48,323 nt of DNA from Perkinsus olseni (taxonomy: Eukaryota), in the NCBI GenBank assembly GCA_013115125.1, contig JABANN010000241.1, positions 1 through 48,323 of the forward strand. Reading direction: 5' to 3'. The notes beneath the pieces were generated by a model. The model had not been told where the DNA came from. It saw nothing but the letters and a program-made list of their open reading frames with translations, and ran no database searches. Numbering within the stretch: position 1 is the first letter of the stretch; each line of letters begins with the position of its first letter. The translations under genes were made by a program, and so were the position numbers. Positions 3,043 through 45,000 of the stretch are shown here, piece by piece.

Positions 3043-5232
3043 TCACTTCGTGGTGTTATCAGGAACTGGAAACATATATCTGACACGCGAACCGTAGAGC
3101 ACTGCGCCTTCCACGCCAAGACCCTCGGTTCTATCCCCACACCCTGCATTTTTATTACAGCAGCCGCCTCTCGGCGTCTTCTTCGTCCTCATCTCCTTCC
3201 TCGAGAACTTCCATGCGGCCTTCTGGATACTCATCGAACAGCAAATCGAACATGTACTGATCTTCGAGCATCGACCCACGGTATTCGTAAACCTGAGGCG
3301 TATCTTCGAGTATCCAACCTCATTGCGAAAAACCAGCATCGAGCTAGGATACTCATATACGTGAGGCGTATCTTCGAGTATCTAACCTCAATGCGAAGAA
3401 CCAGCATCGAGCTATGATACTCATACACGTGAGGCGTATCTTCGAGTATCCAACCTCAATGCGAGTAACCGCCATCGAGCCAAGATATTCGTACACGTGA
3501 GGCGTATCTTCGAGTATCCAAGACCGACTCGAGACCGATAGCAGCGAGAAGCGATACGCATGATGAACACTCAGAAGCCTGTCCTCCTGTTTTCAAGAAG
3601 GCTTTTTTCGTTCGTTTTTTTGCTTCTTTCCGTATCCGAGGTGGACCCACGAAAAACAGAAAGAGGAGAATATCTTTCGAATTATTTCAACAGTACCCTC
3701 CCAAGTAGGTGGTATCCTATTCTGCAATAAGCACGCATGCACATAAGATACGCCAGAGGAAGCAAAATCCCTCAACCGCCTCACACTTCCTCATAGACCA
3801 AGCGCGTCATTTTCGGCCCCAACCAACTCCTCAGTCACGCGAACGAAGAGAAGTACGAAATAACGCTCCCTGAAGAGGTGTCACTGCGCCACGAAATTGC
3901 CCTTCTCCTATTACAATGAGGACCTTCCCGCCAGGCTTCACTGTCTTTCTTATAGTCTGCATGAGGGCTTCATAGACATCTTCCCCCTGTTTATAGAGTA
4001 CCTATTAAAACGGCAAAGGCGCTACTGGGACAAATACGATGTGTCCCTCCGCGCAGCGATTTATGCTACAATCACTATATCAATAGAATAAAAAGGACTT
4101 CCCTATGAAGTTAATTTATGCTACAATCACTATATCAATAGAATAGAAAGGACTTCCCTATGAAGTTAATTTATGCTACAATCACTAGTTCAATAGAATG
4201 AAAAGGAAAGCGACGCCTGAGAACTAACGCCCATGAATTTCTCACTACTGGCTTGATTCAGCGCAATCTATTATGTTCGTAAAACTAACAGTGCCCGTTC
4301 TTTCCCGCGCGCCACAAAATTGCTCCCATAACTGACACTAATTAGCCTCAAGATATTACCTCACAGCACAATACAACATCATACTGCTTTCGAGGAAGCT
4401 CATCAACAGCCGCCATATCCCCCCAAGGACAGGCATGCACCTGTGAAAACACCATCACATCGACAAAATCTTGCTATCTTGCCCTCACTTGAACTTCCTC
4501 AACGCTCTCAAGGCCATTACAACGGCAGCTTTCTCGTAGCCGCTTAAGTCCTTCCGGCAGGTCGGTCAGAGTTACCGACTTTGCCCCCATCATGTAGCTT
4601 GCGATGCCTCCGAACCCCGTGCCTAGACGATGCATTTAGCGCGCGCCCTAGTAATCGATTTGGCGATACTGTACTACCACTCCCGAGCTCCAACACGTCC
4701 TTTCCGTGGACGATTTCCGGGCGCAGTGACAGATAGTCCGCAAAACACCGCGCTGCCGGCCAGAGCATCCAACCTAAGATGGGATCATAGAGGTCAACCT
4801 GACCCGGAAGATACTCTTAGGTCCGCACGAACACACTCGACCTTATTCGTATCTTGCCACGGACAATGACAAGATATCCTCAACAAACCTAGTAGAATTG
4901 CAGGCTGGTTCCACATAGCTTCTACACGAGATAGGCCCACAGGTCAGACCCAAAAATTTTGTGATTTATCCGAAATTTCCGTAAAATTTTTCGATGCGAA
5001 CAAATCACCGAAGTCCCCGAACACTACCAGTCGGATCTCTGTCGTCGTTCGAGATCTCCTGCGGTATGATGACGCTGAATTCTGACAAACGGAAAATATT
5101 AAAAGCAAATCTACATCGCTTCGCTCCGCTCAATTTCCCAGAATTATCACTTTTTCCATCAGATTCTCCATCGTAGGTTCTGAAGCCGTTGGCTCTTACT
5201 GGACCGTCATCGTGGAGACCGGCAAATGACAT
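3043..5232 (-). CDS. METTL21/METTL23-type protein lysine methyltransferase (Methyltransf_16 family), multi-exon
   Basis: Spliced reading: EFSVIIPQEISNDDRDPTG|WMLWPAARCFADYLSLRPEIVHGKDVLELGSG|TGFGGIASYMMGAKSVTLTDLP...HACPWG...YDVVLCCE|VLYKQGEDVYEALMQTIRKTVKPGGKVLI. Likely C-terminus EVLEEGDEDEEDAERRLL|YMFPVPDNTTK*. The start codon and exons between 3900 and 3250 are uncertain. Confidence 0.8.
3267..3521. repeat. Minisatellite, 68-bp unit, about 3.7 copies (probably intronic)
   Basis: TGAGGCGTATCTTCGAGTATC(C/T)AA recurs at 3294, 3362, 3430 and 3498. Confidence 0.9.
4059..4207. repeat. Intronic minisatellite, 55-bp unit, about 2.7 copies
   Basis: ATTTATGCTACAATCACTA... starts at 4059, 4114 and 4169, inside a methyltransferase intron. 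Confidence 0.9.
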
Positions 5233-5617
5233 AACAGGATCAACTACAAGTATCTTTAGGTTGCGTCCGTTACCATCTCCAACTACAAGATACTTCCATC
5301 AGATTCCGCTCAGTAGTCACAGAACATCCTTCTGGTCGCAAGGAAGTTTCTAGGGTGCTGAATTTCCGAGGAGCCGACAATGCCGTCGGGTTCAGTACCA
5401 TAAAAACCCCTACACAAGCTGCGTCGGAACTTAACGCGACTGATGCCATTAGCCTAGGACGGGCACCTGTGACATACGTTCGCCTACCATACGACTCGGT
5501 CACAATCCTTAATCGGAATTTGTTCTCTTCTAGTACCGCACCTTCCCCTCCTCCCAACTCGAGACTATTCAGAAGGACAACAGTAAGGGTAATATACATG
5601 TTGAACAGCGTCTTCAG

Positions 5618-41945: not shown

Positions 41946-42069
41946 ACTGCATTAGTTGTAGTAGGCAGGTGCTGCTCATTATGCGCTTCTCGCGGCATTC
42001 TGAGAATCTTGCGTTCGTCGTAGTCTGACAATTTCCGGGGTCGGCGGTTAGGTCGTTGTCAGTGTCACG

Positions 42070-45000
42070 ATGAGCACTCTTTTGAAGCGGCCGTACGACG
42101 TATTGGATGAGACGATGGAGGGCAAGGAGAGGAGGGTGGGTATGCAGAGGTGATAGGAGAGGGGTTTTTGTGGTTCCGACGGTGCTGGGGCGTGGGCGCG
42201 AGGATCGCGCGCGGAGGCAGAGCTGGAAGAAAGAAGTTCGTAGATTCGACAATTTTTTGAGTGATTTACGCGAGCCAGACCTGAATCAAAGCAAGAGACT
42301 GAGTTAGTTGGGCTACGGTTAGTTGGGCTCCCTGGAGGAGCTGTGCTCCTTCATTCTCGGAGAGAAGAGAATTCAAGCTGTTTTTTGGTCTCCCGATGTT
42401 CCGGCGGCTTGTTTGAAGTCTTCTGCCGAGAATCTTCTCGCTCGTCAGTGTGGCTTCCCTTCTCGACTCTCTGGATTGGGACGAAGTACCATCGCTAAAT
42501 GCGATGCTCGAGGAGGAGTGTCGCGGAGCCCTTGGGACGGTGGTGAAGTTCCGGTGTATGGTCCAGGACGTGAGTCTAGATGGCTTCTTTACGCATCACT
42601 CGAACGCTGTTGTGATGCCGTAGTAGAGCACACTGTTATCAAGATAGCGATAGAAAAGCACACGTTCCTAGGGTAGCTCGTCTCCGAGTTGTAGGAAATG
42701 TGGTATGAGAGGCGCCTGTTGGACGTAACTGGTCACGCGGGTTATGTGATGCACTTTGAGCGTCTTCCGAAAGCGTGCGTCGAGATCCGCTCGGCGGCGT
42801 TGGGTTGTAAACAACGTTATGGCTCTGGATGACTCTCCTTTGTCATCCTGTACGGCTGTTGTCTGTGGCGCACGGATTGACAGGTTATGAACCCAGAGCC
42901 GTACCAGCCGGTGATAAGGGACAAGGGTGGCAGTGCTCGGTGTGGGAGGTAGTAGTGAAGGGGAAGGCCCTCCCCAGGGGACGCTCGCTTTTTGTGGATG
43001 GTCATTGTACGATTTCTGGCCCCGTTGGTGACAACAGAGCATCGAGCAGGCAGCCAGTGGTCAAGCTGGATGGCAGGTATCGCGAGGAGCAGCCGAGAGA
43101 AGATGCGGAGGAGGGGGCTTTGCGGTGGGGGAGAGGAGAGTTCGAAATGGTGATCACTGGGGATCGAACCTGGGAGAAGCGATTGCGCTACTGAGTGGGC
43201 TGTCTATGCATGAAGGGAATCTCTTCGTTCTTTGTCGATTGAAGCTTCCCTCATACATCGTGCTGCACATGGTACAATAGCCACGTCTATCGGCACAGAG
43301 GGCGCCGCCACCGGCTGTCTACGCAATTGCGGTCTTCTTTCTTCGCCGTCGCTGATGAGTGCCTTGTCAGAGACAAGTTTTCCGCTGCATGAGAGTTCCG
43401 GGGGAGACCAGCTGGGCAACAGAGCAACAGGCTAATAGGGAGGTGTAGGTTTGCTCCTGGTGCAAGAAGAGGAGACACGTCTCGAGGCCGATTGAACCAG
43501 AGCAGTCCTATTTCCACGCCGAGAGTCCCTTGGACCCTCATCCGCCAGGAGGGTCGTGCATTCTGACTGGGGTAGTCTAGCGTAAACGCGCGTTTGGCTT
43601 CAGGTGTAGGGGAGTGGATGCGGGATCCGAGGTTGAAGCTGGCACAACACAGGAGCGGATGACTTGCGGAAAGGGTAAGTCTCCGATGCCTGTCCGAATA
43701 ACTTTGCCGAGGATGTGTTCGAGTTATCTCGTCGCGCCTCAACAGTTTGTCTATTCGGTTGCTGCATCAGCCGCTTCTCTGCGCAACTTGGGAATCTTTT
43801 GGGTCGCGCAGCCGCAAGAATTTCTTCGTGGTAGTTCTGTCATGAGGCTCACTGTTAGGGTTCAGATTCGGGTAAGCGAGAGGCTGTTGTGAAGGTGTAT
43901 GACGTGAAGGAGATGGACAGAGATGCCATGAGACTGCACGAGGTCAGTGTGAGGGTTGCGTGGGTTATACGTGCTTAAAGCGCGCGCCCGGTTGATCGAT
44001 ATCGTCTCGCAGGTTGTTGAGATTGTTGGGATATTGGATTCTGTTGGTGCTGCTGAGAGTGCTCCTTGGGAAAGCGGTGGAGGAGGACCTCTCGCGCCTA
44101 TCAAAGAGGAAGAGCACGACGAGGGTGATAATCTTTATGTAGCGCGTGATGGATCCAGAAAACGTTCAAAATGCCGAAAATCACCTGCAACTATATGCCC
44201 TGTGCGTCGGCGAGCGATCGAGAGCTCTGAAATGCGAAGGGGGTCGTTCCTTTCAGGGTTGGAGCTTTCCGCCGGGGATGGCGGAGGTGGACTGAAGGAG
44301 GGGATGCTGTGCCGAATCCAAGCGCTGAGGTTCGACTCGGCGAATGACTGGAACCCCGCAGTAGGGATGCCGGGGAGGGTATTGGCGAATCAGCGTGGTA
44401 ATGAGCTCGTTAGATGCCACTGAATGAAGCGATGAGTAAGGAGCTCGTAACGGAGAGAGTCAGAGGGGAGCTCATTGATCATCTTAGCAAGTAAGGGGCG
44501 AGCGAGAGACAGATGGTGGAAGTATCACATTCTGGATTTCGCCACGCTGACCGTTCTATCGAGTTCAGCAGCGTCGAAAACCCCCTTGCAGCTTTCCTTG
44601 AATCTCGGAAGGCAATGAATTCACATTTCCTCCTTCAACTGCGACGCCTTGCAGATGGTAGAATTCGCAGCTTCGGGAACAACTGGCTTTCACAAGTGAA
44701 CTCTCACTAGGTAGTCGACGTATAAGTGTAGCACGGTTGTGTCAACTCTCGGGGAGTCAGCGTAACCGCCCCCTGCCGGCCACGCGGTCCGCCCTTCAGG
44801 TGTCTACGTGGAGATCGTCTAGCTGCTGAGTATCTTCTCCTGCACATGGTCTCGCGTCATGTCAGCGGACTTGGTACGGGCCTGGCCCAGGACACCGGTC
44901 TGATTGTCGGCCACTGGCCGTTGAACATATCTGGATTCTCGAAGAGTGAGTTGAAGCCTTTAGTCGGGTAGGCTCGACACGCTCGTCTTGCTAGGTGTAG

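Follow-up and report, generated by a model that had tools for sequence, protein, structure and literature searches.

The Perkinsus olseni genome carries a dispersed 21-base motif, GCGC[G/T/A]CGCC-H-NNN-YR-ATCGAT, which, judged from sequence, is likely (probability about 0.72) the binding site of one Perkinsus protein, or of a fixed pair, that probably marks some of the promoters and probably holds a retrotransposon integrase in place beside it. The consensus, the number of copies, their even split between the strands, the lack of relation among their flanks and the nine-base offset from the LTR were observed directly, and the location of copies at the starts of genes and within tiny introns, as well as their absence from convergent gaps, was called with a self-made gene model. 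A sequence-only reading had proposed a protein binding site, and this stands as the best explanation, at the level of a candidate, in view of the strand symmetry, the unrelated flanks, the position-specific degeneracy and the insertion of an element at a fixed distance. That reading did not include the association with gene starts, the scale across the whole genome or the targeting by a transposon.

Copies of the motif in the window

The window, the whole stretch of 48,323 nt that was analysed, contains all five 24-nt copies described before, which together make up repeat family D8. Scanning with the degenerate consensus at ≤1 mismatch returned six matches in the window versus 0.00 expected and none in all 100 shuffles; the copy at 37897 has two deviations and was caught by the pattern GCGCGCSCC-N6-ATCGAT. 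The copies are:

4638..4661, plus strand: motif copy 1, antisense in the 55-nt intron 4623-4677 (minus strand) of the gene 3913-5245
6194..6217, plus strand: motif copy 2, antisense in a predicted 51-nt intron 6175-6225 (minus strand; gene model)
11056..11076, minus strand: additional copy (position 5 is T), pointing into the minus-strand array, whose first predicted ATG (10979) lies 76 nt downstream
35422..35445, plus strand: motif copy 3, 56 nt ahead of a predicted ATG (35500)
37896..37919, plus strand: motif copy 4, with two deviations, sense in the 72-nt intron 37875-37946 (gene model)
43979..44002, plus strand: motif copy 5, sense in a predicted 64-nt intron 43949-44012 (gene model only)
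46348..46368, minus strand: additional copy, a perfect match, in an intergenic position some 58 nt away from where a dispersed 490-nt repeat (45800-46290) ends

Four of these had been called intronic, two antisense and two sense, and RNA supports this for two of them. The copy at 4638 lies in an intron removed in spliced RNA contigs (joint 4621/4677, 3/3 runs), its host gene being both spliced and trans-spliced, and for the copy at 37896 the exon lengths equal those of a 1380-nt RNA contig only with the intron removed (1380 = 1380). The copies at 6194 and 43979 are placed in introns by the gene model only: at 6194 the sole RNA contig, of low depth (6.7), retains the predicted intron, and no splice joint for the intron at 43979 was present in the RNA contigs examined. 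The copy said to lie about 55 nt upstream of the first gene of the plus-strand array is indeed found there, at 35422, and the RNA contig of this gene starts at 35471; likewise, the predicted ATG at 10979 is the first of the minus-strand gene array. An origin of the copy at 46348 as part of the dispersed repeat was rejected, because the repeat ends 58 nt away. Rfam and ARAGORN searches of the window returned no RNA family at the motif, and only a tRNA-Arg at 28751-28825.

Consensus, spacing and genomic placement

Genome-wide, the degenerate consensus at ≤1 mismatch matched 761 times in 39.9 Mb (control 1), a density of about one site per 52 kb. The pattern GCGCGCSCC-N6-ATCGAT gave 269 exact matches (control 0), evenly distributed over the strands (135/134), and A, C or T at position 5 gave a further 309 (control 0). 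Allowing spacers of 3-12 raised the pattern count to 272; among the first 100 matches listed, 98 had the canonical spacing. The proposed fixed spacing is thereby borne out, as a flat spacer distribution is absent genome-wide. We judged spacing by this genome-wide pattern, because a histogram of motif-selected loci is biased, the loci having been picked for carrying the motif. The spacer between the conserved halves keeps a constant length as claimed; it is not fully variable over five bases, since only three are free, and near random, with C/A/T, Y and R at the remaining positions. Similarly, the first half, given earlier as AGCGCGC(G)CC, is conserved, except that its G at position 5 is not invariant (G/T/A). 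Exact copies of the G form number about 265 and variants at position 5 number 309, compared with only about 110 copies for all 42 remaining single changes combined (684 less the others); such constraint on the core and position 5 beside a near-random spacer is not what neutral decay from one master would yield.

Degeneracy is position-specific and the flanks of the copies are unrelated, with information content falling to about zero beyond positions -11..+23 of the aligned sites. A comparison of the flanks of 147 sites detected no shared flanks, terminal repeats or duplications, save in a few paralogues, and in one paralogous pair with 77% identity all 15 core bases of the motif are retained. 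Sites are spread unevenly, the first 200 kb of contig C1 being without any; a general clustering at contig ends was rejected, apart from sites cut by the LTR. Searches of viral contigs gave three single matches, and 120 metagenome stretches carried the motif (median GC 62%), with a single match in each of the 80 listed; both results are read as chance. Our literature search found no paper naming this motif.

Placement was called with a self-trained gene model, which was seeded with 26 RNA-supported introns and recovers 20-21 of them; the model fuses neighbouring genes and called 16/147 sites exonic, and a higher gene-start prior led to the loss of true introns. According to this model about half of the sites are intergenic and 56/147 (~38%) intronic, the latter with no sense bias (25 sense, 31 antisense; 25/56, P=0.50). 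Among intergenic sites informative about polarity, 31/31 face predicted gene starts (P ~1e-8), as do 8/8 in the independent position-5 set, giving 39/39 over both systematic sets and none in convergent gaps. Moreover, 37/61 intergenic sites lie ≤300 nt from a predicted ATG, compared with a background of 28%. Across three long stretches (604 kb) the motif was located in 5/31 divergent, 0/31 convergent and 1/128 tandem gaps; as only 5/31 divergent gaps carry it, the motif is no general core promoter. Nor is the gene-start polarity absolute, because among 17 unsystematically collected sites on small contigs two, both on contig C363, have only a gene end nearby.

The intronic copies gave no indication of acting as promoters of the next gene, since neither intron rank nor distance to the gene end is shifted (44 versus 3,190 introns), and an intronic share of ~38% without such bias is not predicted by a simple promoter model. 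Position 10 carries A in 7/44 intronic and 20/48 promoter copies (P=0.011). No clear second positioned element was detected near the promoter copies among 5-8-mers.

Retrotransposon insertions beside the motif and alternative explanations

Next to the motif are insertions of an LTR retrotransposon of the Ty3/gypsy type. The element has direct terminal repeats with TG..CA ends, a 277-bp unit whose two ends lie on the same contig, and some 20 insertion ends in the genome. Ends lying on different contigs are paired by 4-bp target duplications, and in this manner 12/13 left-end flanks were matched to a right-end flank (chance mean 0.78, maximum 5 in 20,000). All 12 paired insertions are intergenic and carry the motif on one side, in the same orientation and always nine bases from the LTR, with the target duplication at +6..+9 beyond ATCGAT; the motif adjoins either LTR end equally often (6:6). 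It has 0-2 mismatches at 11 insertions and 4 at one, compared with 0/300,000 random positions matching at ≤2 mismatches, and without the three pairs that led to the element, 9/9 insertions have the motif at the same offset. The cut sites share no fixed sequence, and the motif lies outside the target duplication and is absent from the LTR. Two unpaired LTR ends are without the motif, and two have 4-5-mismatch matches only; for a second, related element there is one host flank, and the offset in it is identical. The first 193 codons of the element's ORF have 37% identity (E 2e-29) to the P. marinus polyprotein P0073, with the domain order Gag, PR, RT, IN, and a 91% match to P0075 (Gag, PR). A link to a pol gene was sought in this assembly and not found, and Rfam and ARAGORN found no RNA family in the LTR.

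The one-sided and extreme precision (12/12) is tighter than that of Tf1 at Sap1-bound sites, for which the cited source gives 63-73% of insertions (PMC7175516), and could mean direct recognition of the motif by the integrase or by another protein that the element encodes, with a host factor perhaps binding without acting as tether. We consider this unlikely: about 760 sites stand against some 20 insertion ends, which implies that the motif is retained for the host's own purposes; 0/12 insertions are intronic versus ~38% of sites, although counter-selection could explain this; and position-specific LTR elements are described in the reports cited as using host tethers (PMC5371812, PMC7175516). 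With a similarly low probability, the motif might be a polar replication-fork barrier or origin-type element whose location at promoters would be coincidental, with integration occurring where forks have stalled. The site density and the strictly one-sided insertion would agree with this, as would the attraction of Tf1 to Sap1 sites only where forks are blocked, as given in the cited source (PMC5371812), and a mean GC skew that turns from negative to positive across sites. However, the skew tracks gene direction, intronic copies lie within runs of constant skew, and the uneven spread of sites speaks against it as well. A fork barrier or origin and the candidate site of a promoter-marking protein are not mutually exclusive.

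That the copies, chiefly the intronic ones, are inert relics, either mobile-element ends or short templated insertions seeding tiny introns, appears still less probable. A short module, one of a small set, is present in many introns of the window, such modules co-occur regionally with the motif, and intronic copies are nearer to one consensus than promoter copies, all of which would agree with such an origin; against it stand the lack of common flanks, terminal repeats or duplications in the 147 flank comparisons apart from a few paralogues, the invariant core adjoining a near-random spacer, the position of the motif outside the target duplication and the LTR, and the fact that the other modules are mostly intronic, whereas the motif is enriched at gene starts. 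Least probable is an RNA-level element, i.e., a splicing or trans-splicing signal: 33/44 intronic copies are in introns ≤80 nt, yet this share equals the background (72%), distances to splice sites vary, about half of the sites are intergenic, and the symmetry of orientation within introns contradicts such a role.

Proposed mechanism and comparison with known systems

As the candidate site of one protein, the motif would have both halves read together, and the bound protein would keep the site nucleosome-poor, as Sap1 or the yeast general regulatory factors do. It would further place the integrase of the Ty3/gypsy-type element such that cutting, over 4 bp, takes place at +6 to +9 past ATCGAT, and the same protein may bind the intronic and the promoter copies. 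More tentatively, and short of what we would call probable, the motif may be an element of promoters and chromatin architecture, the first sequence-specific one in perkinsid and dinoflagellate alveolates, whose single factor would open divergent gene blocks, act inside tiny introns in either orientation and dock a family of gypsy integrases on one side with single-base, near-total fidelity, independently of the yeast systems. For transcription start in dinoflagellates and their relatives, a 2013 review gives no established promoter element, and in its account Perkinsus keeps ordinary chromatin (PMC5029490). Perkinsus is also described as transfectable; with ordinary chromatin, this means that a sharply defined word of 21 bp at gene starts could be put to direct use in reporter assays and in purifying its protein. 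In addition, the retrotransposon insertions provide an independent footprint of the candidate motif-reading protein.

Known sites that mark housekeeping or head-to-head promoters include those of DRE/BEAF-32, E2F and yeast Abf1/Reb1/Rsc3. Of the two halves, ATCGAT is similar to the DRE core (Drosophila DRE/BEAF-32) and GCGCGCC to the E2F or Rsc3 core; such likeness of short halves does not amount to homology, and we know of no fixed-spacing fusion of DRE-like and E2F/Rsc3-like halves. For the GCGCGCC half, E2F sites described in Cryptosporidium belong to the compared systems; the E2F/DP profile PF02319 had no match in the genome, but its control likewise matched nowhere and genes are split by introns.

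Like introners, the motif is a short recurrent word in tiny introns of unrelated genes. In contrast to them, its introns share neither homologous bodies nor ends, roughly every second copy is intergenic, at a gene start, and it is a retrotransposon target; a mobile intron was rejected, given the unrelated flanks among the 147 sites. Closer in lineage is SPE2, the site of the Plasmodium falciparum ApiAP2 protein PfSIP2, which is also alveolate, bipartite, strictly spaced and comparable in number, with ~777 sites read by two adjacent domains, and which is described as two similar 6-bp repeats (GTGCA-type) 4 bp apart, 94% of them subtelomeric (PMC2829057); apicomplexan-like AP2 domains are reported in perkinsids (PMC4117751). 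However, the halves of the Perkinsus motif (GCGC[GTA]CGCC, YRATCGAT) are unlike each other and of other sequence, and its copies are dispersed at gene starts and in introns; paired GTGCA half sites 4 bp apart are not present in it.

Ty3 of Saccharomyces cerevisiae shares the Ty3/gypsy type and position-specific integration, which in Ty3 involves a host DNA-bound factor, but is described as integrating at TFIIIB-bound RNA polymerase III start sites, whereas in Perkinsus a dispersed motif next to genes predicted to encode proteins is targeted. The layout resembles Sap1/Tf1 of Schizosaccharomyces pombe, with an LTR retrotransposon that inserts a fixed distance, exact to the base, from a host motif enriched at gene starts (in Perkinsus 39/39 polar sites, by the self-made gene model). 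According to the sources cited, the 21-bp Sap1 motif lies at RNA polymerase II promoters with Tf1 offsets of -9 and +19 (PMC5741268), and Sap1 establishes regions depleted of nucleosomes and is able to block forks (PMC5371812). Perkinsus differs in being an alveolate, in insertions on one side only (12/12) with a 4-bp duplication, and in a motif with many intronic copies and none in the LTR, and thus offers a case outside the yeasts of base-precise retrotransposon targeting to a non-tRNA host motif.

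Shape and constraint of the motif

Sequence checks confirmed the five 24-mers that the sequence-only reading had reported at window 4638-4661, 6194-6217, 35422-35445, 37896-37919 and 43979-44002 (all plus strand), which were also recovered unprompted as one repeat family, and the degenerate pattern gave six matches in the window versus zero across 100 shuffles. Further copies were located:

11056-11076, minus strand: additional motif copy
46348-46368, minus strand: additional motif copy

A copy in sense orientation opens each of the window's two divergent arrays, lying 56 nt upstream of the first predicted ATG in one and 76 nt in the other, and the distance of about 55 nt proposed earlier for the first plus-strand array gene was measured as 56 nt. 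The 24-kb centre separating these intron-rich arrays of opposite skew (11500-35000) has flat GC skew, few predicted introns, no motif copy and several near-perfect hairpins (17904, 17969, 20421, 32396); at 25881-27503 lies a DUF6740 protein with 94% identity to a P. olseni protein and many paralogues. A short tandem repeat, whose 10-nt unit contains ATCGAT, occupies 11321-11400, close to the minus-strand array start. At 5245 (minus strand), what we take to be spliced-leader-like bases are joined to an RNA contig, 11 nt upstream of the ATG of a presumably methyltransferase-like gene, one exon of which had no Pfam match.

Across the genome (39.9 Mb, 3,353 contigs), GCGCGCSCC-N6-ATCGAT had 269 exact matches (control 0), 135 forward and 134 reverse. 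With spacers of 3-12 permitted the strict form totalled 272 matches, and the six-base spacer was present in 98 of the first 100 listed, in line with the fixed spacing originally claimed. Position-5 A/C/T variants added 309 matches, and the G form with one mismatch gave 684 (control 3), leaving ~110 copies for the other 42 single changes combined; the consensus GCGCDCGCCHNNNYRATCGAT had 761 matches at ≤1 mismatch (control 1). Among 97 exact sites, no more than three bases of the spacer were free, information content was about zero beyond roughly -11 to +23, and weak preferences flanked the motif (W[A/C] on the 5' side, TT on the 3' side). The flanks of 147 sites were unrelated, a few paralogues excepted, and one paralogous pair with 77% identity kept all 15 core bases.

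Placement relative to genes

Genes were called with an HMM seeded with 26 introns from RNA contigs and self-trained on 1.25 Mb, which recovered 20-21 of the 26 seed introns and often fused neighbouring genes. By this model, 45 of 119 sites were intronic (19 sense, 26 antisense), 18 lay in divergent gaps, 13 had only a gene start nearby, 24 were in tandem gaps, 11 were called exonic and 8 had no genes; none of the 119 was in a convergent gap or had only a gene end nearby. Background DNA is start-facing at 8.4% versus end-facing at 6.8%, which yields P ~1e-8 for start-facing placement. In an independent set of 28 position-5 variants, 11 were intronic, 8 faced a gene start and none a gene end, while 4 were in tandem gaps and 5 were called exonic; among 17 sites collected later and unsystematically from small contigs, two had only a gene end nearby. 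Over three long stretches (604 kb, contigs chosen partly for known matches), the motif occurred in 5/31 divergent, 0/31 convergent and 1/128 tandem gaps, and thus, as far as the gene models go, it marks a subset of promoters, not all.

Other recurrent words of the genome are mainly intronic, without promoter enrichment. The second and third dispersed words have 89 and 90 copies in 1.25 Mb, of which 63 and 64 are intronic, and further words (GTATCTTAGGT, GAGGAAATGCAAG, GCACGCATGCA) show intronic strand bias.

553, 1032(-), 3897(-), 4320(-), 5841, 5952(-), 8464, 40468: second word, AATTTCGTGGCGC(GCG/AGTGAC)
5129(-), 6506, 6574(-), 7848(-), 40325: third word, GCGGAGCGAAG

Recurrent words mark a regional compartment of the genome: contig C1 of genome G000 (1-200,000) has zero motif copies at ≤2 mismatches across 200 kb, and other words are also few there. 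Within RNA-supported introns of the window lie tRNA T-arm/B-box-like pieces, e.g., at 36587-36680, 41143-41194, 41730-41785 and 6059-6106.

A 490-nt dispersed repeat (45800-46290, minus strand, with AATAAA and a (TTGAA)n tail), unrelated to the LTR element described below, has the motif within ~90 nt of its 5' end in 4/12 copies (3/11 excluding the window's), in either orientation, and other copies lie near the other dispersed words. It also tends to stop 58-80 nt away from the motif (3/11 copies outside the window), as would fit open chromatin. Around it, one contig of run X1 has 18 other bases in place of a 1.1-kb stretch (45558-46653), and inverted repeats occur at 45766/46681 and 45604/46597.

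A retrotransposon inserted beside the motif

Four motif sites close to contig ends run into either of two repeated sequences starting TG, found at 13 and 18 loci, which are both ends of a single 277-bp TG..CA unit; the whole unit as query added one diverged end. Of the 13 left-end flanks, 12 share a 4-bp duplication with a partner among the 19 right-end flanks; by chance the mean was 0.78 pairs, and 20,000 draws gave at most 5. Each of these 12 pairs has the motif on one side and not the other, with ATCGAT toward the element and the duplication at +6 to +9, so that the LTR begins nine bases past the motif. Eleven of these motifs carry 0-2 mismatches and the twelfth carries 4, compared with 0/300,000 random positions at ≤2 mismatches; three pairs include the loci that led to the element's discovery, and the unascertained 9/9 all carry the motif. 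Left and right LTR ends adjoin it equally often, and both the duplication and the five bases preceding it vary freely. Every paired insertion is intergenic, with 5 in divergent gaps, 2 beside only a gene start, 4 in tandem gaps and 1 where there are no genes. Eight unpaired ends comprise two internal junctions, two with a perfect motif and two with 4-5-mismatch matches at the nine-base offset, and two without motif.

The element's ORF shares 37% identity with a polyprotein of P. marinus whose Gag, protease, RT and integrase follow the Ty3/gypsy order; no pol of its own was linked in the assembly. A related element encodes a 699-residue Gag-like frame resembling this ORF (E 3e-15), and its single host flank shows the nine-base offset too. 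In two related LTR families (L211:1-579 and L274:261-2357) the gag frame begins within the LTR, and 30 nt that directly follow on the inner side of the LTR are almost identical between the families; they form a putative primer site, for which no matching tRNA was identified.

Proposed mechanism and known systems

The motif is real, and its sequence pattern, positions and LTR offset are shown by the data. Most likely, a host protein would recognise the two halves together, in their fixed geometry, on double-stranded DNA, hold the site open at some promoters, mainly divergent ones, and place the integrase on its ATCGAT side; we infer the protein, its effect on chromatin and its tethering of the integrase. 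A candidate reader would be a protein with tandem AP2 domains (PMC2829057 and PMC4117751). Less probably, the integrase might read the motif directly, or the motif might be a polar fork barrier, and either reading would be compatible with a host factor bound at the site. Inert relics are an unlikely reading: an invariant core next to near-random bases suggests that a recognition site has been under selection, not that a repeat has decayed. An RNA signal is very unlikely, since the intronic copies show no strand bias; they are also unbiased in intron rank and gene-end distance.

The motif is distinct from SPE2 by sequence and from introners by the introner test. Among the titles listed in searches of the accessible literature on Perkinsus promoters, chromatin, retrotransposons and motif strings, none described it, and the motif and its LTR targeting are apparently undescribed so far. 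The target-specific elements already known from Perkinsus are DNA transposons of the Dada group, which sit in tRNA genes (PMC3706591). Motif and element would work like Sap1 with Tf1 (PMC5741268, PMC5371812, PMC7175516), as an analogy and not an assignment to that system; there, the 21-bp Sap1 motif has Tf1 insertions at offsets of -9 and +19 (PMC5741268). By this analogy, the whole is apparently factor-guided integration at a promoter motif, in a form not described before.
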